From a virus (Duplodnaviria > Caudoviricetes): a DNA stretch of 64,000 nt. The position numbers were made by a program, and so were the translations under genes. The notes under the pieces are model-generated. The model had not been told where the DNA came from and did no database searches. It saw only the letters and a list, made by a program, of their open reading frames with translations. The stretch is taken from IMG/VR virus record IMGVR_UViG_3300031760_000033, positions 1 through 64,000 of that record, one strand, 5' to 3'. Below, in pieces: positions 17,435 to 33,227 of the stretch (position 1 is its first letter; the number at the start of each line of letters is the position of its first letter).

Positions 17435-17998
17435 ATGGCAGACATTAACATCCTATCACCATTCATCCTCTCCTTCGAGGGAGGTTTTGCTAACCACCCG
17501 GCAGACAAGGGCGGTGCGACTAACAAAGGGGTCACGATTGCCACATGGCGTAAAGTTGGTTACGACAAGGATGGCGACGGCGACATCGACGTGGACGACC
17601 TGAAACTGATAACCGACCAAGAGGCTGTTGATGCAGTTCTCAGGCCCCACTACTGGAACCGCTGGAAGGCCGACCAAATCAAGAGTCAGTCTCTCGCGAA
17701 CATCCTTGTCGATTGGGTTTGGGGTAGCGGCGCACACGGAATCAAGATACCACAGCAGCTCCTCGACGTTCCGGCTGACGGCATTGTCGGCCCGCAAACT
17801 CTCGCGGCCCTCAACGCCAAGAAGCCGGAGGCTTTCTTCAATCTCATCAAGAACAGAAGGGAGCAATTCTTCAATACCATCGTCAAAAAAGACCCGTCTC
17901 AGAAGGTATTTTTGAAAGGATGGCTGAGAAGACTCAATTCGATAAACTTTGGTTATCTGAAAGATAACCGTGGTCGAGTCATTCGGTTCAAAGAATAA
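17435..17998 (+). CDS. Endolysin, glycoside hydrolase family 108 with PG-binding domain
   Basis: EGGFANHPADKGGATNKGVT catalytic motif; C-terminal FLKGWLRR. Confidence 0.9.
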   Translation: MADINILSPFILSFEGGFANHPADKGGATNKGVTIATWRKVGYDKDGDGDIDVDDLKLITDQEAVDAVLRPHYWNRWKADQIKSQSLANILVDWVWGSGAHGIKIPQQLLDVPADGIVGPQTLAALNAKKPEAFFNLIKNRREQFFNTIVKKDPSQKVFLKGWLRRLNSINFGYLKDNRGRVIRFKE

Positions 17999-19010: not shown

Positions 19011-22000
19011 ATGAAGGAGAGGTTTTTGACCGTACTTGTCCCTGTCAAGGATAGCGACGTAACGCAGACATATCAAACGATGGCTGCGCTGCTTGCAAAT
19101 GTTACACCGAGCATCGCCAACATCAACAATATTTATGCCGTCGGCGCTCCTGTTTACAGCTATATGCGTACATGGCTCAATCCTGCCACAAACCAATACG
19201 AATTTCATCAGGTGGTTGACCGTGAGTTCCCGCACATTGGAAAGCCTCTCGAAATATTTGACTTCACCTATGATGCCACCCGTATGGGTTCGGCACCCAC
19301 TATTACGGCTCAGGGTGTTATGTGGTATGCTGACAAGGATTCCAGCGGCAACGACGTAACGCTGGAGGGCCTGTGGAGTCAGGAGTGCCATGTCAGTTTC
19401 AATGGCGAAAATTTCTATTTGAAACAGATACCCACGTCGAGTAAATCAAATGAGGACGCCAGATATAAATACGACATAGATTTCGTGTCTGAGCGCGTTG
19501 TTTTGGAGCGTGTGTACCTCTATGACGTTGTGCAGCCGTTCGTGTCCTCCAAGCCTATTTCTGAGAGTGCTCAGTTCAGCTTCTATGGCGACATTACTGA
19601 GCTTGCAAAGCGCATCAATGCTAGCTTGCTTAGAAGCGGTTTGGCTTCTATTGCCCTGAGACCCGGAGTAACACCAGGAAGCTACCTGACATACGAAGAG
19701 TTCAACTCTGTGGGCCTCGGCACCTATACTGGCACGAAGGACACCAGCGACCCATACCCGATTGTTTCGGGAGAAATGCAGTCGTACATCCATTATCCTC
19801 ATGCCAATATCTACGAGCATTTTGGAGGCAATTACACCAAGTATTTGCTTAACCTTGTTTATTTTGTAGACAATCCTCAATCGTATCATATCGGCCCCGC
19901 AACCGGCGGCTATGATGAAATTTACGACGGAGAACCGCGCTTGTCTGGATATAAATGCCTTATAGGTAAAGACAAGAAGGGTGTTATAACAACTTCCGAA
20001 GAGAAGCTTATTACTTTCGAGAATAACACTATTCACGAGGCATTGCAGCAGTTCCATGACACATTTGGTCTGCAATACTATATCTTTCGCGATACAGATT
20101 CCAATGGTGATTTCACTGGCGATACCATAATCATGGTAGCTGACTGCCAACACGATTTTGCCGATTGGGACGCTAATGCCGCTTCTGGAGAAGGTGATTA
20201 CACCCGCGACAGTGATGGTATTCCTACCACTACACATCCGTTCGACTATGGCGTTGAAGATGCTCTTCTGTCAAAGGAGAAAACAAACACCACTGACAAG
20301 ATTATTACCCGGATTACCGGCGTGGGCAGCGAGGAGAATATACCTTGGTACTATCCCAACCCAAATGCGGACGGGTGGATTAGGCCGATGTATATGACGA
20401 ATGGCGTAGAACAGTCTACGGCTATCAATTATCCTACGTCAGAAGGTACAACTGTAGCTGATTCTGTCAGGTACGAAAAATACCTAAAAAACAGAGTAAC
20501 AGACGTATTCCAATTTGGCAAAAAGATATGTACTGTAAATAAAAAAGCAAGTCTCGTAAGCAAATTCTCAACTTACACATCTTATGTAGACGAGACGTCA
20601 GCTAGACTTTGCTACGATTTCACATTGTCGTATGATGCTAGAATAAAATCCGATGGATTCTCATTAACAGGCTTATCAGCTTCAATAACATACTACCTAT
20701 TTAAGGGAACGACGAACGTTACGGCGTCCGGAAACGCATTCTTAATCAATGGCGGTAGCGGGACATTGGAAGCTGGTGATTATCATCTTATCATAAACAT
20801 AACATTCTCTGGTACAGGTCCAACACCTGTAACTTCGGTTACGAAATACTATTATCCGGCAAAGAATCGAATTTGCGGATGGATAGATACATTTGGATTC
20901 GGAAACCTGAATGGGGCATTGGCAATGGGCTTGGGAGTATTAGCGTTATCTGCTGTCATATCCGACTTATGTACAGGAGGTTTTGCTTGCCATTTACCGA
21001 GCTTCTTCTCTACTAATCCAAACTTAACTTGGAATAACAGTTCCGATGGCTCAAAGATGGGTTGGTATGATGGCAACAGACGAATTGCTATTAGCGAAAT
21101 GGAGTTTTGTGAGGCTAATTCTGAAACATACGCCTTTATGGGTGGTAGTGGAGAGAAAGCTCTGGGTGTCGATGATGTGTACAAGGTGACTTGTGATAAT
21201 GATACTTGGGTGTCATCTTATAACCTACAGCTTAAGGGAATACAGTGGGACGATTGGGGTGACATCTATAGCCTATATATGGATTGGGTGAACGGTTTGC
21301 GGGCATCAAAACGCTCGGCTACTTCTATTGAAGAGGTTGATGTCAGCGTAGACTCTTTTGTAAACAACAATGTGGCATTCGGTCTTACAGGGTACTTAAC
21401 TGATGGATGGTATAAGAATAATAAAAAGTATGCTCTCGCTGATTTCGGAATCACTAACGAATCCACGCTAAATCAAAACGCTGACGTATTTGATACTATT
21501 GAATTTCAGCGTGTAAAATACGTTACGCCGCAGACGCGGCTTATGCCAGAGTTGTATATCAAGACCGATGGAGAACGTCGTTTTTACAATGCTCATAACT
21601 ACTATGTCAATGGAAGTCTTCTGACTGGAACAGCCGACCCGATGATAGGAGAGGTGCAGTCTGGCACAAAGGTCAAGAATCCTCTGTATAAGGAGAAAGA
21701 AACGGATGCAGATAACAAGCATTATCAGTTTGAAAATGAATACGTCCAGATAATGCCGCATGAGCATATTGAGGAGTTCGATGATGTAAAACCGACCATC
21801 AAGGGTCAGCAAAGCTATATTCGTGCTTATCCAACAGAAGACGATTTTTATCTCGACCCAACATCTTTCTATGAGAAGATTCAGGGGCAATATATTCAAT
21901 GCACTACCGAAACGGTTTATAGCGACACGTCTGTATATTATCAACTTGTTCGTATAGATATTGTTGAAGAGTTCGCTTTTGATGAACTTGACAACAATGA

Positions 22001-23741
22001 AATTTGGGAGAGCATCGAGGATGGCAATACAAGTGGCGAGTACAAACACCCCTATTTCTTTGCTAAACTTCGTCCGATGGGATTCAATATCTTCGACCTT
22101 GCGTTGCAGGATGAAATGATACTTTCAATGACTACTGGTCATTGTGGAGCCTGTAACTTCAAGATTGCTGTCGATGAGAATACCAAGAAGAATCCTGTTC
22201 AGATTTGGGAGTATGATGTGTATGGTGGTTCCACTTATGAGACCAAGGGTGTTAAGTTATATTCTGCTGGAGAATTGCGCAGGATTATAGATAGCCCCAA
22301 CCTTCATTATGATACAGATGGAACTTCCGATGGTTATATACTTGTCGATTATAATCCGAATGCTCTGACTACCGGGTTCCTGATTGACGGAGAAAACACT
22401 GGAGCCGCTAGAAGTAGGCGCTTTGAAAGAACAACATACACCGCAGAGGAGGTTACTAATGGCCGTGTCGGTTCATTAAAACTTGCCCCCAAAAGGCCTT
22501 TCGAGGGTGATGTTATGACGAGTGGTAAGTTTATTGATAGTCAGCAAGATACTTCGGAAGGGTTTGTATGGATTGCTCTCTACAAAGATACAGAAACCTA
22601 TGGTGCCCTGATGCCATCCGCGCAGCCTGACTATGGTGACGACAACTACAGCCACTACATTGACCCCAAGGGACACATCTATACAGACAGAAAAACTGGT
22701 TTGACTGAGGTGTTGGAAGACGATGAGGCCGATAAATTTGTTCTGACAAATATCAGGCTCCCTCAGGCATATCTTCGCCGGGCCGAACGCGACCTGTCTC
22801 GTAGGATTATTGCCTACATGTATGACAATAACTATCAGAAGTTTAACTTCTCTGTTAAGTTCAGCCGTATCTACCTTGCTGAGAATGATGCCATCGAAGG
22901 TAACTTAAATGAAAATTCCGTGCTGTATGTAACGTTTAATAATAAGATTTACAGGCAGTATGTGAAACATTACACCTACCGCATGGTACATGATGCTTCT
23001 CTCCCTGAAATAAGTGTTGAAATGAACGAGGAACTTTCTGTTTCTCGCACATCCATAGAACAACAGGCAGCATTACAGGCTCAGGCCACATTGAACAGTA
23101 ATAGGCGCTGGAGAAGAGAGTTGAATGAGGAGATTGCTGGAGTCAGAAGAATAACTATTGGTCGTGGAGAGGATGTCGTTATTAGCGGAAATATCTTTAG
23201 CAGAGACAGTCGTACCTCTATAAGAGATTTGGCAAAAGAAAGAGAGATTGATGTCGGGGACCTCAATTTGAGACACTTCTCAATGGACGATTTTACTCTG
23301 TTCAATGGTACAGACCTCCGAATCGGCGACCAAATATTCTTACCTACGGCCTTTAAGAACGGACACCATATTGTCCGTAGGAAATGGGATAATACAACAC
23401 AACAATTTATTGACGATTCGACGCAAAATTTCTCACCAGCATTCATCGATTCTAATGGTAAAATTGCAGACTATGCAAGCAATGGCAACGAGAATCATTC
23501 TATTACTCCTGTTAAGACAAGTGAATTTAATGTTGCGGCCTTCAATACTTGGGCTGCTTCGATGCACGATGCTGTATTGCAGATTAAGTACACTGTATCT
23601 GCTCATGGGAATGGCCAGCAATGCTCGACAGACCCGAAGACAGGTAAGAGTGTTTCTTGGTGGTACAATACAAGTAACCAGCAGATTATGGGTGATATGT
23701 GTTACGACCTGCAGATTCCTGTGTATAATGTTAATAATTAA
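19011..23741 (+). CDS. Large tail tip / baseplate hub protein
   Basis: 1576 aa, beta-rich; tail-protein-like segments (KIITRITGVGSEENIPWYYP; NFSVKFSRIYL); synteny. Confidence 0.6.
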   Translation: MKERFLTVLVPVKDSDVTQTYQTMAALLANVTPSIANINNIYAVGAPVYSYMRTWLNPATNQYEFHQVVDREFPHIGKPLEIFDFTYDATRMGSAPTITAQGVMWYADKDSSGNDVTLEGLWSQECHVSFNGENFYLKQIPTSSKSNEDARYKYDIDFVSERVVLERVYLYDVVQPFVSSKPISESAQFSFYGDITELAKRINASLLRSGLASIALRPGVTPGSYLTYEEFNSVGLGTYTGTKDTSDPYPIVSGEMQSYIHYPHANIYEHFGGNYTKYLLNLVYFVDNPQSYHIGPATGGYDEIYDGEPRLSGYKCLIGKDKKGVITTSEEKLITFENNTIHEALQQFHDTFGLQYYIFRDTDSNGDFTGDTIIMVADCQHDFADWDANAASGEGDYTRDSDGIPTTTHPFDYGVEDALLSKEKTNTTDKIITRITGVGSEENIPWYYPNPNADGWIRPMYMTNGVEQSTAINYPTSEGTTVADSVRYEKYLKNRVTDVFQFGKKICTVNKKASLVSKFSTYTSYVDETSARLCYDFTLSYDARIKSDGFSLTGLSASITYYLFKGTTNVTASGNAFLINGGSGTLEAGDYHLIINITFSGTGPTPVTSVTKYYYPAKNRICGWIDTFGFGNLNGALAMGLGVLALSAVISDLCTGGFACHLPSFFSTNPNLTWNNSSDGSKMGWYDGNRRIAISEMEFCEANSETYAFMGGSGEKALGVDDVYKVTCDNDTWVSSYNLQLKGIQWDDWGDIYSLYMDWVNGLRASKRSATSIEEVDVSVDSFVNNNVAFGLTGYLTDGWYKNNKKYALADFGITNESTLNQNADVFDTIEFQRVKYVTPQTRLMPELYIKTDGERRFYNAHNYYVNGSLLTGTADPMIGEVQSGTKVKNPLYKEKETDADNKHYQFENEYVQIMPHEHIEEFDDVKPTIKGQQSYIRAYPTEDDFYLDPTSFYEKIQGQYIQCTTETVYSDTSVYYQLVRIDIVEEFAFDELDNNEIWESIEDGNTSGEYKHPYFFAKLRPMGFNIFDLALQDEMILSMTTGHCGACNFKIAVDENTKKNPVQIWEYDVYGGSTYETKGVKLYSAGELRRIIDSPNLHYDTDGTSDGYILVDYNPNALTTGFLIDGENTGAARSRRFERTTYTAEEVTNGRVGSLKLAPKRPFEGDVMTSGKFIDSQQDTSEGFVWIALYKDTETYGALMPSAQPDYGDDNYSHYIDPKGHIYTDRKTGLTEVLEDDEADKFVLTNIRLPQAYLRRAERDLSRRIIAYMYDNNYQKFNFSVKFSRIYLAENDAIEGNLNENSVLYVTFNNKIYRQYVKHYTYRMVHDASLPEISVEMNEELSVSRTSIEQQAALQAQATLNSNRRWRRELNEEIAGVRRITIGRGEDVVISGNIFSRDSRTSIRDLAKEREIDVGDLNLRHFSMDDFTLFNGTDLRIGDQIFLPTAFKNGHHIVRRKWDNTTQQFIDDSTQNFSPAFIDSNGKIADYASNGNENHSITPVKTSEFNVAAFNTWAASMHDAVLQIKYTVSAHGNGQQCSTDPKTGKSVSWWYNTSNQQIMGDMCYDLQIPVYNVNN

Positions 23742-24560: not shown

Positions 24561-27500
24561 ATGGCTTACACAAACATTGATGACTTACTTAACAAAGTCG
24601 AGAATGAAGGAATGAACGAGCAGGGCCGACTTGGTGCCAGTGAGTTCAACCGCCTCGCTCAGGCTGTCAAGGAGTGTCAGGGTGGTGCCAAGAGTGTCAA
24701 GTTCGGTGGTCTAGACCCGATTGCACCAAATGATGACGGTGTTGTTGTCATTCCGATGGTTTCAGACAGTTGGACTGGCTCACTGCGGTTGCAGCGTAAG
24801 GTTATCCAAGACTATGAGGAGGTATATGTCGCCGTCGCAGACGATGGCTCCTATCTCTACAAAGACACGGACGTGCCTGTACGCTTTCAGTTCCGCGAGT
24901 ACCGAATACGCACCAATGACGACACGGGCGATACGGAGTATCAGCCTTCCAACAAGGAGGTCACGGTGAAGATTCTGAAACCGACACTCACGGGCCGTCA
25001 GGAGCTTTACTCGTTTACCTACACCGCCAAGGCTTTCGCCAGCACGGAATGGCTGGAACTGAACTTGCAGCCTTACCTCTCTGCCGGCGACAACAACCTC
25101 ATCTTCGAGGTCAGCAACACGTCATCCGGCGAGACGCCATCGGTGTCGTTCACCATTCAGGCGGCCAACCTGAACCTTCGTGTCGCCGATGACAACAACT
25201 GGAACAACACCGCTCTGGTGGTTGGCACGGACAACAGCCTCACGGTCGAGTATTATGCCAACGGTGCTGTTGACCGCACCCTCTGCGTCAAGTTCACAGG
25301 CGCCAGCGGAACGACATCCACACACCGCATCTTCGTCCCCAAGGCGACGGCTTCCACGACTGTTACGTCCGAGACGTTCACGGCCACGGAAGATACCGTC
25401 AGCTTCTTCTCAGAGGGCCTGAAAAAGGTCGAGGCTTGGATTGAGGCCGGTGAGGGTGATGACATTGTTACCAGCAACGTGGTGGTGAATAACATCATTG
25501 CCGTCCAATCCGGCTCCACGAACAAGTATGTGGCCATCCAAGGCTGCATCGAGAGTATGCTGAACTTCGAGGCTGCTACGATGTTTGGCTACAACATCTA
25601 CACTCCTGAGCCTCCTGCGACTGTTACCTTCGTTATCGCAGACTCCACGAAGACCAATGTCTATCTGGAAGTTCCGATAGCAAACAGGACTGTCAATACG
25701 CTCTACGAGTTTGCCAGCGTCCTGAGCATCCAGTCCTCTCTCCCCAGCATCCATGTCTATGTGTTTGCTAAGATTGATGGGACCTACGTCAACAGCGGAA
25801 ATCCTCTCGCAGACTTCCTTGTTGATAACAGCGAGGACTTCGGCGCCGTGGAAGGTGCAGACTTCTACCTGAACCCTATGCTTCGTAGCAATCAGGAGGA
25901 GAACCCCATGCGTATCATCAACGCTATGGATAACACCGTTGTCACCTCAGACCCGTCGAATTTCCATAACATCAGCTTCCAGCCCGGTGTTGACGGTTGG
26001 GTGGAACAGAACAACATCCGTTTCCTGCGTCTTCTCGCCGGCAGTACACTGACTATCCCCTACGACATCTATTCGCAGTTTACCGATAACTCCAGACACG
26101 GCCTCACCATTGAGATTGACTTTGCCGTCCGCAATATCACCAACGAGGAGGACCCGATTCTGACTATCGGCAACCGCAATGCTTCCAACCCGAAGGGTGT
26201 CTATATGAAGGCCCTGAATGGCGCCTTCATGAACCGAAGCAATACGTCGTGGGATTCTGCTGACGTGAGTTGGCAGGAAGGTGTCAGAACACGTCTGGTG
26301 TTCAACTTCCAGCACAACTACAACCTTGTAAGCGCAGAGAGTGGCCGTGGACGTGCAGAATCCGCTACCATCGCAATTATCCGTGCCTATATCAACGGTG
26401 TCATCAACCGCGAGGTCAGGGTTGCGGATGTGAGCAATGCCAACGAAATCAATGCCGGTGGCGACATCGTTATTGGCCAGTCAGGTTGTGACATAGACAT
26501 CTATGGCATCCGTGTATATAAGAGGAGCATCACCCCAGAGCAGGTGGTGAAAAACTATATCTCTACCCTCCCTACTGTGGCAGAGAAGAAGGAAATCCAC
26601 GATGACAACGACATCCTCGATAACGGTGTTGTGAGCTTTGAGAAGGCTCTTGCAGCTGGTTACAACTGTATTGTGTGGCACGGAACCCACATAAGCCGCC
26701 GCTATAAGGATAATCCTAAGCGTTATGGCTATTACGAAATCTACCGGCACAATGCCGACGGCACTCTTGACCGTGCTCACTCCGGCATCCAGTACGGTGT
26801 CGAGGGCAGCGGTCAGGGTACTACTGCCATGACCTATGCCGAGTGGAACTACAGCTTCAAGGAGGACAAGAAGAAAGGCTCCGGCCACGACGAGTATAAG
26901 TACGACGTCAACGGCACGTTGAAGAATGTTTTTGTTGACTTGGACGGAGTTGTGGCTTTCGGTGCTGCGGAGAATAAGCAGAAGTTTGGCTACCAGCTGA
27001 AATCCGGCATCCCTGTGGCAAAGAAACTTGTCGGCAAAATCAACTACGCCTCCCCGATGCAGTCGCACAAGATGGGTGCCTGTAACCTCTATAACGACCT
27101 CTACGCCAGTTGCGTGGCAGGTTTCGGTGAGAGCGGCTACTCCTTCGACCAGACGGACTGCATTACAGACTTTTCGTCCGGCCAGCGTATAACAGTCATC
27201 GAGGAACCTTTCCTGTACTTTGTTCAGGAGGTTGAGGGCGCCGACAATGCTTTGAAAGTCTTTAAGGGCCTCAGCACTTTCGGTCCCGGTAAGGCCGACA
27301 AGCCTACTTGGGGTGTTACCGACGCTTCACTTCTCGTCGGCGACAGTCTTGTCGAAGGTGCTTTGAACAATAACCCCTTGACTGATATGCGTGTGCCGTT
27401 TGTTGACACAATCGACAGCGCAACAGGTCGTTATGTTTGTGAGTATCAGATAAGCAATGACAAAGGCGACAAGGTGGAGGCTTTCGTATATGCTGGTGCC

Positions 27501-30500
27501 AAGAACATAAATTGGGGATTCGGCGACACTCTTGAACTGCATGACAGCGCGAATGTTGTATGGCCCGGTGTCCGAGAAGGCGACCAGACCAATGCGGACG
27601 CTCCCACCACGAGACAGGTGAAACTCTGGCAGCCTATCTTCAACTTCCTGTATCTGATGAACACCAAGATAGCGCCGTGGAAAGGGCCGAATGGTGATGG
27701 TCAGAACGCCAAATTGAGCCAGTTGAACATTGCTGTGCTTTCCAATAGTTTCGACAGCAGTGTGGCCTACTGGATGATTGACAGCGACGCCGGCGAAGGC
27801 TATGCCAAGTTCGACCTCTTCCGCTGCCACTACAAGGCTGACGGCACGAGACAGTACGTCCCCGCAGGTATTCACCTTGTGCAGGGCCAGTACACATTCG
27901 AGAATTTTGCCTGTCTGTACGACCTCACGGCTTCGCCAACAGGTGTTACCGGGTACAGCGAGTCCGACCTCTGGTACGACGTCAGCAACCCTGCCAACGA
28001 TACACGCAATATCACCCTGAATTTGCAGACAGAGCTTAACGCCGTCAAGACCAAGAACGGTCTCACTGACGTTATTAACTACAGCGCCGATGTGGATGCC
28101 GTCAACACGGCCATGAAGAAGTTTATCTGCAAGATTTTCAGGCTGTACGTTGACAACAACGTGTACCTGAACAAGAAGAGCGTCCAGTTCCACCACGAGA
28201 CTATGGTTCTCTGGGCCGGCACCGACAACCGCTCGAAAAACACCTACTACCGCCTCAATCCCTATGCCGTTCAGACGTTGAATGATACCGGTCACAACTG
28301 GCCCAATATGGAAATGAATGACGATGACCTCGACACCATTTTCAAGACAAACAACTCCGGCATACAGTCGAAGCCTTATTGGGTGCTGGAATCTGATGCA
28401 GACCCGGTTACGGGCTACCATTGGGAGGGTCAGGACAATGTGCTGAACAACACACTCAACGATGCCTACGGCTACGGGTTCCTAGAAACCGGCGACAAGC
28501 AGATGGAGTTGTCGAACATGATGGGACGTATCTTCAATGCTATGGTGGCACTCGCCAACGGCCAGACTATGCCTGACGGCACGGCTGTCAGCGCCGACCC
28601 CATCGGATGCTTTGACTTCTATTTCTTCTACATCCAAAAGTATTTCCCGGCTGTGGCCTACAATGAGACGGCCCGCATCCGCTACGAGATTCCAGCCGTG
28701 CTGTACCGCTCTCAGGCAGCGGACGATGGCGGCGAGGATTACCCGCAAGACCCGATAAGCCAATCTCTTGGCGACCAGTACGATAGCGAGAAAGAGTACA
28801 TCCGCAAGCGCGTTACCATGCTGGCCGGATATGCCGGCTACCGTATGAGTCAGTTCGGCTTCCGTGGCTATGCAGGTTCCTATGCCGTGGCTCTGAAACC
28901 TCACCAGTACATCTACCCGATGCACGAGGTTGGCGACCAGAGAAGCTCGTCGCCCGTGCGCTCGATGACTCGTGTGGCCCCCGGAACGACATTCAACCTT
29001 TCCTTCGACAACAACAGCGCCACCAACGGTGTGTACTTCTACTTCATAGGCTCGATGCGAGAAATCGGCAACATCGCCTCTTGGGGTAACGGTACATACT
29101 CTGGCGAGGCTGAGACCACGGCTATGGCACCCAATGCCGCCCGTTTGGTACGCTTCGATATGTACAGCGCTGATGCCGAGGGAGTGGTTTTCAACCCCAG
29201 AGCCGGTGCTTTCAATCTGGCCGCGTGTCAGAATTTGGAGCACATCGACGTGCATAACGCATACAGGTTGAGTGGTTTGGACGGTTTAACCAATCTTGTC
29301 CGCTTACAGGACATTGATTGCCGTGGAACAGCCCTCACTACGTTAGGTTTACCTAGCACACCTGCGCTCGTTTCACTGAAACTCCCCGCCACTTTCGAGG
29401 AGCTGAACGTGCAGGATTGCCCCAATCTTGCCACGCTCCAGTTCGACGATTACGAGAATTTGGAGAGCTTCGTCATCGGCGGCAGCACTCAGGTCAGCAC
29501 TAAGGAGATACTGATGGGTGTGTACGGCTACAACATCACGCAGGAGGCCAATGTTATCCAGACAATCTCGCTTGACGGCATTGCTTGGACTGGCGTCAAC
29601 TGGACCTTCTTGGAGTGGTTGCTAACCGTTACCAATCTGCACATCACTGGCACCATCGCCATGTCCGAAGGTACAGCCGGTCAGATTAGCTTCTCGTTGA
29701 AGAAGAGACTCATCGAGCGTTTTGGCAACGTGGATAGCGAGAGCAATCCTCTCTACATCGACTATACCCGCTCGACCCTCAGCGGTATCTCTGTCAGCGG
29801 CGACGGTTACTTTGATGCCGTCGGCGAGGTAAAACACTACGACCTCATCCCAAATGCCGCCACAGGCAACACCATTCAGTCTTACCAGTGGGCCTTGTCC
29901 GGCGCCAACGCTAACATGGGTAGTGTTGATGCCCTCGGAAACGTAACCTGTCTTGCTATGGGTTCCGAGGCGGCGGCTCCCACGGCCACCCTGACTTGCA
30001 CGGTAACTCTGACCAACGGCAACATACTTACAGCCTCGATGGATATTCGTTTCTATTTCCGTCAGGCTATGGTGGGCGACTTCGTGTACCACGGTGGCAC
30101 ATGGGATAACAGATACAATGCCAGCAAGGAAGTTATTGGTATCTGCTTTATGTGTGACCCAATCACGGAGAACGGTGAGGTTGTCGGTTACGACCGCCGC
30201 ATGTGTGCCCTGAAAGACATCGGAGCCTATCAATGGGGATTGTACAACAACTCCACATTCGGTTCCAATGGCTTCGCCTCCGACTTGAAGTATGATACCA
30301 ACAATGATGGCACTCCTGATACATCACCATTCAACGTGCCGTATATCAGCGAGCTTACGTCAAATGGAGGTAAGGTCCAGTCAAATACCGTGGATTGCAC
30401 ATCCTATAGTGTTGGTGATAATTATCAGTATGTCAGGTTCGGCACTATGATTGACCCTCAGACTGGCGATTTCTTTAAGTATGGCAATAATGTAGCCTTT

Positions 30501-31217
30501 GGTTGTATGGCTCTCGTTGAGCTTTCGTCACTAATGAAGGAAAACGTGTTTCCTGATGACGACCTGTTCGCCGCGACTACGAAGGTGCCGCAGGGTCTCA
30601 AAGATACCGCCGGCATCATCTACCACCGCAACAGAGTTCTCGCTGGTACGACATACACGGGCGACGCCAGCACTCAGGATGACGATGTAAACTACGGCAT
30701 TGAGTTCAAGACTGACCCCGACATTGACGCTTCTCCCGGAAATGTCGCTTTGCAGATTTCCAAGATTAGAACATTTGCCACCAATACGTTATCTTCCTCT
30801 TATCCAAATGTTTACTCGCAGTACCTCTATCCTGCTGCAAGTATGGCATACGCATACGAGCCGAAGAAACCTGATGGTACGGATATTCCGGGTCTGCTTC
30901 CAAAGTTCAAGAAGCACCACTGGTATCTGCCGAGTTCCGGTGAACTGTGCCGCCTTGCATACTTCACCCTGATATGCTACAGCGGCTCGTCGTACTACGT
31001 CAGTCAGGCCAATGGCAACCCCTACGGCGACATATTTGCCAATGCTGTTGCCAATCTTGGAACGAGATTCAGTAGATTCAACACGTCGTCGAACTACTGG
31101 ACGTCCACGGAGTACTACACCAACAACGCTTGGTACGTCGACTTCACCAGTGGTGGCGTCGACGGCGGCGGCGGCAAGTACCGCTCGTTAGCAGTGAGGG
31201 CGTGTGCCGCGTTCTAA
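24561..31217 (+). CDS. DGR target: 2218-aa multidomain tail/adhesin protein with C-terminal C-type-lectin-fold (DUF1566-like) domain
   Basis: C-terminus WYLPSSGEL..YWTSTEY..NAWYVDF..VRACAAF contains the VR; internal LamG-like, CotH-like, LRR and Ig-like segments. Confidence 0.9.
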   Translation: MAYTNIDDLLNKVENEGMNEQGRLGASEFNRLAQAVKECQGGAKSVKFGGLDPIAPNDDGVVVIPMVSDSWTGSLRLQRKVIQDYEEVYVAVADDGSYLYKDTDVPVRFQFREYRIRTNDDTGDTEYQPSNKEVTVKILKPTLTGRQELYSFTYTAKAFASTEWLELNLQPYLSAGDNNLIFEVSNTSSGETPSVSFTIQAANLNLRVADDNNWNNTALVVGTDNSLTVEYYANGAVDRTLCVKFTGASGTTSTHRIFVPKATASTTVTSETFTATEDTVSFFSEGLKKVEAWIEAGEGDDIVTSNVVVNNIIAVQSGSTNKYVAIQGCIESMLNFEAATMFGYNIYTPEPPATVTFVIADSTKTNVYLEVPIANRTVNTLYEFASVLSIQSSLPSIHVYVFAKIDGTYVNSGNPLADFLVDNSEDFGAVEGADFYLNPMLRSNQEENPMRIINAMDNTVVTSDPSNFHNISFQPGVDGWVEQNNIRFLRLLAGSTLTIPYDIYSQFTDNSRHGLTIEIDFAVRNITNEEDPILTIGNRNASNPKGVYMKALNGAFMNRSNTSWDSADVSWQEGVRTRLVFNFQHNYNLVSAESGRGRAESATIAIIRAYINGVINREVRVADVSNANEINAGGDIVIGQSGCDIDIYGIRVYKRSITPEQVVKNYISTLPTVAEKKEIHDDNDILDNGVVSFEKALAAGYNCIVWHGTHISRRYKDNPKRYGYYEIYRHNADGTLDRAHSGIQYGVEGSGQGTTAMTYAEWNYSFKEDKKKGSGHDEYKYDVNGTLKNVFVDLDGVVAFGAAENKQKFGYQLKSGIPVAKKLVGKINYASPMQSHKMGACNLYNDLYASCVAGFGESGYSFDQTDCITDFSSGQRITVIEEPFLYFVQEVEGADNALKVFKGLSTFGPGKADKPTWGVTDASLLVGDSLVEGALNNNPLTDMRVPFVDTIDSATGRYVCEYQISNDKGDKVEAFVYAGAKNINWGFGDTLELHDSANVVWPGVREGDQTNADAPTTRQVKLWQPIFNFLYLMNTKIAPWKGPNGDGQNAKLSQLNIAVLSNSFDSSVAYWMIDSDAGEGYAKFDLFRCHYKADGTRQYVPAGIHLVQGQYTFENFACLYDLTASPTGVTGYSESDLWYDVSNPANDTRNITLNLQTELNAVKTKNGLTDVINYSADVDAVNTAMKKFICKIFRLYVDNNVYLNKKSVQFHHETMVLWAGTDNRSKNTYYRLNPYAVQTLNDTGHNWPNMEMNDDDLDTIFKTNNSGIQSKPYWVLESDADPVTGYHWEGQDNVLNNTLNDAYGYGFLETGDKQMELSNMMGRIFNAMVALANGQTMPDGTAVSADPIGCFDFYFFYIQKYFPAVAYNETARIRYEIPAVLYRSQAADDGGEDYPQDPISQSLGDQYDSEKEYIRKRVTMLAGYAGYRMSQFGFRGYAGSYAVALKPHQYIYPMHEVGDQRSSSPVRSMTRVAPGTTFNLSFDNNSATNGVYFYFIGSMREIGNIASWGNGTYSGEAETTAMAPNAARLVRFDMYSADAEGVVFNPRAGAFNLAACQNLEHIDVHNAYRLSGLDGLTNLVRLQDIDCRGTALTTLGLPSTPALVSLKLPATFEELNVQDCPNLATLQFDDYENLESFVIGGSTQVSTKEILMGVYGYNITQEANVIQTISLDGIAWTGVNWTFLEWLLTVTNLHITGTIAMSEGTAGQISFSLKKRLIERFGNVDSESNPLYIDYTRSTLSGISVSGDGYFDAVGEVKHYDLIPNAATGNTIQSYQWALSGANANMGSVDALGNVTCLAMGSEAAAPTATLTCTVTLTNGNILTASMDIRFYFRQAMVGDFVYHGGTWDNRYNASKEVIGICFMCDPITENGEVVGYDRRMCALKDIGAYQWGLYNNSTFGSNGFASDLKYDTNNDGTPDTSPFNVPYISELTSNGGKVQSNTVDCTSYSVGDNYQYVRFGTMIDPQTGDFFKYGNNVAFGCMALVELSSLMKENVFPDDDLFAATTKVPQGLKDTAGIIYHRNRVLAGTTYTGDASTQDDDVNYGIEFKTDPDIDASPGNVALQISKIRTFATNTLSSSYPNVYSQYLYPAASMAYAYEPKKPDGTDIPGLLPKFKKHHWYLPSSGELCRLAYFTLICYSGSSYYVSQANGNPYGDIFANAVANLGTRFSRFNTSSNYWTSTEYYTNNAWYVDFTSGGVDGGGGKYRSLAVRACAAF
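31081..31211 (+). repeat. DGR variable repeat (VR), 131 nt, including the 3' IMH
   Basis: Matches TR 31903-32030 with 17 substitutions, all opposite TR adenines, and one extra codon. Confidence 0.97.
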
Positions 31218-31347: not shown

Positions 31348-31788
31348 GTGAAAGCGGAGCAGTCATCATTATACCGGTCTATTGAGAGACTACACCTGTG
31401 GGCGCTTGAAACTTTCGATAACGCTCCTAACAAGCCAGCGGTTCAGGCCGACATCAAGCTTGTTATGGAGAATATCATGCAAGCTCAATCCGCCACTAAT
31501 GTCGCTCTCAATCTCCCGGACGGCAAACAGAAATTAGACCTCCTCGACGTGGTGGTGATGAGCATGACTAATGTAAAATCTATCACAAGGGTACTGTCCG
31601 AGTTTTCGGACAAGCCAAACAAGAAGGACGCTGCGTCAACTGGCGAGACCGTCCTGAGTCCGTCGAGGACCCGTGTAATTTCCCGCAAACAGAGAGTTCC
31701 GTTAATTGAACTGATGACTGATATTAGTAATCAGCTGGGACGCTGGAAATCCAAGGTGGCGAAGATTTGCGCCACGAGTGAGCCGTAA
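31348..31788 (+). CDS. avd: DGR accessory variability determinant (four-helix bundle)
   Basis: 146 aa, basic and helical, between VR and TR; LYRSIERL and DISNQLGRW motifs; GTG start. Confidence 0.85.
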   Translation: MKAEQSSLYRSIERLHLWALETFDNAPNKPAVQADIKLVMENIMQAQSATNVALNLPDGKQKLDLLDVVVMSMTNVKSITRVLSEFSDKPNKKDAASTGETVLSPSRTRVISRKQRVPLIELMTDISNQLGRWKSKVAKICATSEP

Positions 31789-31808: not shown

Positions 31809-33227
31809 ATGAGGGATGTTTCTTTTTTTGAATTGAACGGGCGTATGACTAACGAAGCCTTCGAGAAGGGCCGGTTAGTTAAGAATAAGGTACAATACGC
31901 ATACACGTCATCGAACTACTGGACGTCCACGGAGTACAACACCAACAACGCTTGGAACGTCAACTTCACCAATGGTAACGTCAACAACAACAACAAGTAC
32001 AACTCGTTAACAGTGAGGGCGTGTGCCGCGCTTGATGAAAAAAGAAAAGAGGCTTGGATAGTCGCATTTGATGACTGCTGCCGCCACAAGAAATCTTCCG
32101 ATAACTGCATCAGATACAGAGTAATATACGAAGAAGACCTGTTCATTCTCGCCGCCGAGGTTGAGACGGGCATCTACCAGCCTTCAATATCTGTATGTTT
32201 CTGTGTTACAAGACCTAAACTCAGAGAGGTATTTGCCGCAAACTTCCGAGACCGCATAGTCCACCATTGGCTCATGCTCAAACTCAACCCACTGTTCGAG
32301 CAGAGGTTCGAGGAGCAGGGTAATGTGAGCTTCAACTGCCGCAAGGGTTACGGCACGTTGCGGGCTGTATGGGCGCTCCGCGAGGATATGCGGATAGTCA
32401 GCGAGAACTACACCAGCGACGATTGCTACGTCGGCAGTTTTGACTTCATAGGCTTCTTTATGAGCGCCGACAAAGAGATTCTGCTGGCCCAGCTCAAATG
32501 GTTCGTGTATGAGAAATACAAGGAGCCCGATGTCGATATAGTGTGGAGGACTCTTGAGGTAGTGGTCAGGCACAACCCTGCAAAAAACTGCGTAAAGCAC
32601 GGGAATATACATCTTTTCGACGAGCTGCCTCCGCATAAAACTCTGTTCAAGACTCCAGACGGTAAAGGTATGCCGATTGGCAACCTCACCTCTCAAATAC
32701 TGCTGAACTTCTACCTGTCGTTCTTCGACGAGAAGATGATTGCGTTCTGCAAAAAGCGTGGTGGCCGGTACGAGCGTTTCGTTGACGACTTCACCGTCGT
32801 CATGAAGCGTGTCGAGGATGTCGTGGCCGCGTTCAGGTATGCCGACGAGATTGCAACATCTATGCTGAAAATCAACTTGCACAAAGACAAGGTATATATC
32901 CAGCACTACTCGAAGGGCGTAAAGTTCGTCGGTTACGTCATCAAGTTCAACCGGGTGTACCTCTCCAACAGGACATACGGCGGTTTTCAGAACTGTGTAG
33001 TTCATGCGGCTCGCGTATGCCAGTCCGAGAAGATAGACATCGCGGAGCTGGCCCATATCGCGTCCTCGCTTAACTCATACGTCGGCTTTACCTGCCACAC
33101 CAATGGGTACGCCATGACGACAAAGATACTCTACTCCGAGTCTGCCTTAGGCAGATGCTTCTACTTCAAGACGAAGCGACAAGTGGTAAAAATCAAGAAA
33201 GAATATAAAATACAACCTGTTATATGA
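31809..33227 (+). CDS. DGR reverse transcriptase
   Basis: PKLREVFAANFRDRIVHH, CRKGYGT, GMPIGNLTSQ, RFVDD, GVKFVGY; start codon uncertain. Confidence 0.95.
   Translation: MRDVSFFELNGRMTNEAFEKGRLVKNKVQYAYTSSNYWTSTEYNTNNAWNVNFTNGNVNNNNKYNSLTVRACAALDEKRKEAWIVAFDDCCRHKKSSDNCIRYRVIYEEDLFILAAEVETGIYQPSISVCFCVTRPKLREVFAANFRDRIVHHWLMLKLNPLFEQRFEEQGNVSFNCRKGYGTLRAVWALREDMRIVSENYTSDDCYVGSFDFIGFFMSADKEILLAQLKWFVYEKYKEPDVDIVWRTLEVVVRHNPAKNCVKHGNIHLFDELPPHKTLFKTPDGKGMPIGNLTSQILLNFYLSFFDEKMIAFCKKRGGRYERFVDDFTVVMKRVEDVVAAFRYADEIATSMLKINLHKDKVYIQHYSKGVKFVGYVIKFNRVYLSNRTYGGFQNCVVHAARVCQSEKIDIAELAHIASSLNSYVGFTCHTNGYAMTTKILYSESALGRCFYFKTKRQVVKIKKEYKIQPVI
31903..32030 (+). repeat. DGR template repeat (TR), 128 nt
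   Basis: AAC-rich copy of the VR; lies inside the 5' end of the RT ORF. Confidence 0.97.

Follow-up and report, generated by a model that had tools for sequence, protein, structure and literature searches.

The protein considered here, P0001, is encoded in a 64,000-nucleotide window (the whole stretch of DNA that was analyzed) taken from a 75.7-kb viral record (IMGVR_UViG_3300031760_000033). It is the variable protein of a diversity-generating retroelement (DGR), and it is probably a receptor-binding tail fiber in which a DGR-retargeted C-type-lectin tip is combined with a live phosphotransferase domain of the CotH type. As far as can be judged from predicted structures and sequence profiles, its domains are arranged from the N to the C terminus as a beta-sandwich array, a ConA-like lectin, a CotH-homologous kinase, leucine-rich repeats (LRRs), a probable immunoglobulin (Ig)-like domain and the C-type-lectin tip. 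In the favored explanation, P0001 would be the distal tail protein of a phage of the siphovirus type that infects gut Bacteroidales, its N-terminal array would provide an anchor and a spacer, and the adjoining reverse transcriptase (RT) would rewrite the ligand-binding surface of the tip from a template repeat (TR). The kinase domain would not be a relic but an active phosphotransferase dependent on Mg/Mn, and the host cell surface, beside the ligand that the lectin modules hold, is tentatively favored as its site of action. The gene, the kinase domain and its candidate active-site motifs are located as follows.

24561-31217, plus strand: DGR variable protein P0001, a single ORF (open reading frame) of 2,218 amino acids (aa) within the tail module and 3' of the tape measure gene.
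26658-28841, plus strand: CotH-type atypical kinase domain, residues ~700-1427, predicted from an AlphaFold2 model, Foldseek and VIA-align.
28224-28241, plus strand: putative catalytic loop D1222-N-R-S-K1226-N1227, placed by hhalign and the Bacillus cereus sequence and kept in 149/149 family representatives.
28323-28334, plus strand: putative metal-binding motif D1255-D1256-L-D1258, placed in the same way and likewise kept in 149/149.

Judging from the predicted structure, residues ~700-1427 are a true, much enlarged homologue of CotH. The AlphaFold2 model of residues 650-1450 (mc2e9394c2737; 42-sequence domain alignment; pLDDT 79, pTM 0.87) does have a kinase-like fold, and this fold matches that of the CotH kinase. 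When the PDB was searched with Foldseek, as had been proposed for this region, CotH from B. cereus was the sole significant match (5jd9, E 3e-4, probability 1.0; next match E 0.28), and alignment to 5JD9 with VIA-align gave a Z of 18.2 and a root-mean-square deviation (rmsd) of 3.3 A, with 336/358 residues aligned. In a search of 48,161 PDB representatives that was independent of Foldseek, only the CotH chain reached Z>=8 (5JDA, Z 17.8, 342/359 residues). The next structural neighbors were CtkA (Z 7.9) and the lipid kinase PI4K II (Z 7.5). These neighbors, together with the fusion of the domain to two carbohydrate-binding folds, would suit a kinase fold put to another reaction or substrate, i.e., a glycan, lipid or small-molecule kinase or an AMPylating enzyme that modifies host capsule or lipopolysaccharide (LPS). 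Such a use is rather improbable, CotH, a protein kinase, being by far the closest structure, although the sequence does not discriminate between substrates.

The sequence-only reading had described the motifs of this region as a CotH/Fam20C-like kinase pattern. The CotH part of that description is borne out by the fold, the profiles and the residue mapping, whereas the Fam20C part is not: Fam20 proteins reach a Z of only 4.2-5.5 against the model, so that Fam20C (Golgi casein kinase) shares a general protein-kinase-like fold only, ranks level with many unrelated kinases and far below CotH, and a specific relationship with it was set aside. In the BFVD library, the kinase model also matches phage proteins labeled CotH or spore-coat-protein-like, including proteins of the crAss-like phages cr124_1, cr52_1 and cr272_1 as well as gp353 of Bacillus phage G. 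On the evidence of these model matches, the use of the CotH fold by phages is wider than the DGR-linked family; a literature search on CotH in crAss-like phages yielded unrelated papers only.

Regarding the active site, hhalign of the family against an alignment of canonical CotH domains gave a P of 0.0027 over 78 columns spanning the catalytic loop and the WDxD motif. D1222 aligns with the catalytic Asp of CotH (D228 in B. subtilis), and N1227 stands at +5, as in CotH and PKA. Further downstream, the two Asp residues of the CotH WDxD motif are matched in the alignment by D1256 (the first, D251 in B. subtilis) and D1258 (the second). Substitutions of D228 and D251 abolish the activity of B. 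subtilis CotH, the D251 Ala mutant being inactive (PMC7821199). From the catalytic Asp to the first WDxD Asp there are 23 residues in B. cereus CotH, the same spacing as between D228 and D251 in B. subtilis, versus 34 residues in P0001, owing to 11 residues inserted after the catalytic loop and ahead of the WDxD motif.

All the motifs that had been named from the letters of the DNA were recovered at their places in P0001 by a direct position check: LTIEIDF of the LamG-like segment at residue 515 (nt 26103), DIDIYGIRVYKRSIT at residues 644-658, GQGTTAMTYAEWNYSFK at residues 751-767 (nt 26811), KINYASPMQSH at residues 826-836, FKGLSTFGPGKADK at residues 901-914, GTDNRSKNTYY at residues 1220-1230 (nt 28218) and DDDLDT at residues 1254-1259 (nt 28320). 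Using residues 650-1450 as a query against 1.8 billion cluster representatives, 388 relatives were retrieved, almost all of ~2,000 aa. Conservation was counted over 149 cluster representatives that are pairwise <50% identical and have ~30-40% overall identity. Each of D1222, K1226, N1227, D1255, D1256 and D1258 is kept in 149/149 of them, so that both candidate catalytic Asp residues (D1222 and D1256) are retained as had been claimed, while Q752, G753, N763, K826, N828, S831, K911 and D913 are invariant or nearly so; among these, Q752-G753, N763, K826, N828, K911 and D913 are the invariant candidate residues of the N-lobe. Since the motifs are invariant or near-invariant across the representatives, they are not due to chance.

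With Bacillus CotH (PF08757; 5JD9/5JDA), the P0001 domain thus shares the atypical kinase fold and a conserved catalytic Asp, +5 Asn and WDxD-type Asp. It differs from it in being only ~9-10% identical, in its length of ~730 aa versus 358, which is reached through insertions, in its altered N-lobe motifs (QGTT...WN; K-x-N-x-A-S-S-x-Q-x-H), and in being embedded in a phage fiber whereas Bacillus CotH is a stand-alone coat protein. The deviating N-lobe motifs and the large insertions could be taken as marks of a pseudokinase, i.e., a non-catalytic binding or scaffold module, and CotH surface proteins of Mucorales, reported as host-cell invasins, offer a comparison for such a role. A pseudokinase is nevertheless unlikely, considering that the catalytic-loop and metal-binding residues are found in every representative at so low an overall identity, as purifying selection on chemistry would give; the complete lack of variation in the putative active site speaks for the importance of the chemistry. 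Because the catalytic Asp, the Asn and the metal-binding Asp are retained and invariant across the family, an active phosphotransferase is the most likely state of the CotH domain, and catalytic activity is, from its sequence, fairly probable.

Several points weigh against a fiber with a working CotH kinase. ATP is scarce outside cells, which speaks against action from the free virion, and the kinase fold supports other chemistries too. P0001 itself has no Pfam CotH match at E<=10, whether searched as the whole protein, as four segments or in the six-frame translation of the 75.7-kb record, and hhalign of the N-lobe, run globally, gave no significant or trustworthy alignment to CotH. Lastly, Benler et al. 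(2021; PMC8008677) term CotH kinases fused to hypervariable C-type lectins "currently unstudied."

The relatives of P0001 are in part more readily recognized. The Pfam CotH model (PF08757, gathering score 23.8 bits) matches 8/22 family relatives at E<=0.01, with a best E of 5.5e-6, and it matches a 2,181-aa relative, the prophage member in a Prevotella genome, with an E of 2e-4 and 21.3 bits. A custom hidden Markov model (HMM), built from 36 canonical Bacteroidota CotH domains, matches 61/151 relatives, mainly at the catalytic-loop region. Searches of PDB sequences did not find CotH, either by phmmer with P0001 or with the family profiles, whose matches were LRR proteins, a C-type-lectin protein and, by chance, cofilin. 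Because the Pfam model matches relatives and not P0001, the P0001 family is, from its sequences, a divergent CotH branch that is seen only in part by that model. Canonical CotH is common in the host phylum itself, occurring in 57/151 genomes, in ORFs of 400-1,400 aa. The CotH-like atypical kinase domain of the sequence-only reading is therefore upheld by the Z to 5JD9, the Pfam matches among relatives and the hhalign P.

The second part of the proposed function, the retargeting of the tip, relies on the C-terminal region and the retroelement downstream of it.

30075-31214, plus strand: probable C-terminal C-type-lectin fold of the DUF1566/Lcl_C type, from Pfam and profile matches, bearing the variable repeat (VR).
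31081-31211, plus strand: VR, encoding residues 2174-2217.
31348-31788, plus strand: 146-aa ORF in the position of a DGR accessory gene (avd), assigned by position only.
31809-33227, plus strand: DGR RT ORF (RVT_1 E 5.6e-9; phrog_1423 E 1.1e-51).
31903-32030, plus strand: TR, contained in frame in the 5' portion of the RT ORF.

Every substitution between VR and TR is found at a TR adenine, and these adenine-only mismatches, together with the adjoining RT, confirm P0001 as a DGR target. The C-terminal lectin fold is supported by profile matches: Pfam Lcl_C matches P0001 with an E of 4.5e-6 and 27.4 bits, under its cut-off of 34.9, and is found in 11/22 relatives, while the family profile for the region matches 8q4e (E 1e-4). 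Since the TR lies in frame within the 5' end (31809-32060) of the long RT ORF, Pfam Lcl_C also matches residues 31-71 of the translated RT ORF. The VR is one codon longer than the TR, having at 31161-31175 five codons (GAC GGC GGC GGC GGC) versus four AAC in the TR (31983-31994). In the relative P0002, which is 96% identical, the VR differs at AAC-templated codons and has the codon number of the TR (four). The extra codon is thus specific to the present genome and may have arisen by slippage or later duplication, and the difference at templated codons means that the DGR has diversified this tip within the population.

P0001 resembles the classical Mtd type of Bordetella phage BPP-1 in its probable C-terminal C-type-lectin fold, in a VR at the very end of the protein, in mutagenesis confined to adenines and in having an RT next to its gene. 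It departs from Mtd in its tip, which is of the DUF1566/Lcl_C type, and in the ~1,840 residues ahead of the tip, which include an enzyme-like domain. An RT homologue is found just downstream of the P0001 homologue in ~60/80 viral loci. In contrast to most relatives, none was seen in the 3.7 kb downstream of the gene in IMGVR_UViG_3300021255_000123 (L001), a close viral relative with an ORF of 2,206 aa and a domain ~55-59% identical. In IMGVR_UViG_3300028591_000127 (109 kb; L047 and L059), tandem paralogous giant CotH-type genes have a single RT homologue between them, so that one DGR may serve both as targets. As for the 146-aa ORF, it has no family match in Pfam and PHROG searches, was found by tblastn in 49/155 related loci and gives a BLASTP match with an E of 0.052 to the four-helix-bundle protein of Bacteroides phage BS-TP1.

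This phage (PQ571274.1; 112 kb; host B. salyersiae BG8) also has a full-length homologue of P0001, namely gp27, which has 2,187 aa (BLASTP E 2e-87), ~27-28% identity and the same catalytic motifs, and is annotated as a hypothetical protein. Like P0001, gp27 lies upstream of an RT, with the four-helix-bundle protein between the two, and annotations of a baseplate hub and a tail fiber are found upstream of it. The tail-module reading is based on gene order in both phages, the P0001 gene following the tape measure gene here and gp27 following baseplate-hub and tail-fiber genes in BS-TP1. In the window, portal (phrog_64) and large terminase genes are found on the minus strand at the left end, and the plus-strand order is tape measure, a 187-aa lysin-like ORF, a 1,576-aa ORF, two small ORFs, P0001, the 146-aa ORF and the RT ORF. 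The tape measure protein has 1,932 aa (Pfam TMP_3, phrog_9959), and the P0001 gene lies 7 kb downstream of its gene.

It is quite likely that P0001 is incorporated in the virion. P0001 matches phrog_24896 and phrog_14959, and as both these PHROG families carry no function, they would allow a large effector, released by lysis or cell-associated, that is merely encoded within the tail gene block. That P0001 should be such a non-virion protein is very improbable, considering that in this phage as well as in BS-TP1 the gene is flanked by tape measure or baseplate-type genes on one side and by the DGR cassette on the other, and that receptor-binding proteins are the usual targets of phage DGRs (Roux et al., 10.1101/2020.04.01.020958).

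Where a virion-borne kinase would act is a matter on which preferences can be ranked, although sequence tools cannot separate the options: the host surface is placed before the inside of the infected cell, then non-catalytic binding and then a non-protein substrate. Action at the host surface beside the lectin-bound ligand is tentatively preferred by analogy with Bacteroidota, in which multi-domain CotH proteins that appear to be secreted are numerous. The suggestion of the sequence-only reading that a kinase on the virion modifies surface or mucosal proteins of the host is speculative. Slightly less credit is given to a kinase that is active inside the infected cell before lysis, late in expression, on virion components or host proteins, and that is afterward passive cargo of the fiber. 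It is only inside the cell that ATP is abundant; in addition, CotH of Bacillus targets structural proteins of the spore coat while the coat is being assembled (PMC7821199), and manipulation of host signaling has been proposed by Roux et al. (10.1101/2020.04.01.020958). The intracellular alternative is at odds, however, with the position of the domain among lectin, LRR and Ig modules typical of surface-directed proteins, and no Ser-rich substrate-like protein was noticed beside the gene, where no systematic search was made. Returning to the preferred surface action, the complete proposal that the fiber brings a working kinase outside the host cell, where it would phosphorylate a surface glycan or protein beside the ligand of the diversified tip, is to be regarded as a long shot.

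The remaining modules of P0001 are distributed on both sides of the kinase domain.

24561-25835, plus strand: N-terminal part, residues 1-425, predicted by AlphaFold2 to have two helices (7-40) followed by about four beta-sandwich domains.
25836-26597, plus strand: predicted ConA-like/LamG jelly roll, residues ~426-679 (VIA-align Z 17.0-17.7).
29211-29660, plus strand: leucine-rich repeats, residues ~1551-1700 (family profile against LRR proteins of the PDB, E 2e-5 to 1e-2).
29754-30065, plus strand: probable Big_2-type Ig-like domain, residues ~1732-1835, from weak matches.

In the model of residues 1-700 (m385213e5ed5b; AlphaFold2, pLDDT 84), the beta-sandwich domains resemble macroglobulin or Ig-like domains, Foldseek matching them to complement C3 and alpha-2-macroglobulin with an E of ~1e-9. 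The jelly roll can be superposed by VIA-align over ~200 residues on lectin-like jelly-roll subdomains (rmsd 2.8-3.2 A), and Foldseek additionally relates it to a trans-sialidase lectin domain and to the lectin module of PilC. Pfam Laminin_G was not matched by P0001, whole or in segments, nor by the 22 relatives, so that the LamG-like segment claimed earlier is borne out by its fold match and not by Pfam, and residues 426-679 would belong to the LamG/ConA-like superfamily at the level of the modeled fold only. The best structural neighbors of this domain are lectin-like subdomains of clostridial neurotoxin/NTNH proteins; at 9-15% identity, these are read as sharing the jelly-roll fold, and a toxin function is not implied.

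The LRR-like repeats are supported by the family-profile match (best E 2e-5), with Pfam LRR_4 giving a weak match on P0001 itself (E 0.015, residues 1557-1597). The Ig-like segment could be located, while its support is weak: Pfam Gp77 matches with an E of 0.09, Big_2 was found in 1/22 relatives (E 3.5e-4), and an Atlas feature search of the stretch, which serves as a lead only, returned only Ig/Big_2 clusters (0.80-0.82).

With regard to neighboring genes, the 187-aa ORF (17435-17998, plus strand), directly 3' of the tape measure gene, matches the endolysin PHROG phrog_315 (E 8e-34), and it may encode a cell-wall hydrolase of the tail in place of the lysis endolysin. The 1,576-aa ORF (19011-23741, plus strand), between the tape measure gene and P0001, has no Pfam match and belongs to no known family, its sole PHROG match being a short one to a PHROG of unknown function; it presumably encodes a large protein of the baseplate or tail tip.

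The known cluster closest to P0001 is 96% identical to it and the second closest 59%. Relatives are found on at least 429 viral contigs and, among bacteria, at loci in 75 species genomes, the great majority of them from Bacteroidales. Cultured strains with relatives include Butyricimonas muris, Bacteroides sp. OM05-12, B. vicugnae and Prevotella sp. HCN-7019. Some family loci (L085, L092, L095, L114 and others) are in metagenome-assembled genomes labeled Staphylococcus, Akkermansia, Saccharibacteria or Eggerthellaceae; these look like mis-binned phage contigs, since the distribution is otherwise Bacteroidales.

The fusion of CotH with a hypervariable lectin, to which the sequence-only reading had drawn attention as unexplained, is indeed present and unexplained, but it is not undiscovered, having been published between 2014 and 2024. 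CotH was listed in 2014 among the Pfam domains of DGR targets (Ye, PMC4159848); class f1 of Wu et al. (2017; PMC5758913) comprises 13 targets of ~2,000 aa with CotH and Laminin_G_3 motifs; the viral cluster PC_00012 of Roux et al. (10.1101/2020.04.01.020958) has a CotH-like kinase, which these authors suggest to be in contact with the VR; and Bacteroides group 3 of Macadangdang et al. (2024; 10.1101/2024.11.15.621889) combines CotH (5JDA), carbohydrate-binding motifs and LRRs. P0001 is like these three groups in its ~2,000 aa, in its CotH, Laminin_G or carbohydrate-binding, LRR and C-terminal C-type-lectin VR components, and in its phage or prophage context in Bacteroidales, with no difference of kind. 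It is therefore a further member of the published class of giant CotH DGR targets and not a new discovery. The finding itself repeats published observations, and its value is that of a confirmation with a sharper map of residues and domains; what is added here is a fold match of high confidence, the number of representatives in which the active-site residues are invariant and a map of the N-terminal domains.

In the mammalian gut, few targets of phage DGRs are commoner than the giant CotH-lectin proteins, with 388 clusters at 50% identity and hundreds of viral contigs, and prophages carrying their genes occur in cultured Bacteroides, Prevotella and Butyricimonas. With BS-TP1 and B. salyersiae, a cultured phage-host pair makes the role of a kinase in a fiber experimentally approachable. 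If surface phosphorylation is indeed what the domain performs, no phage receptor-binding protein has yet been shown to have such an enzymatic activity, and its role would be analogous to that of tail-spike depolymerases, with a group being added instead of one being cut.

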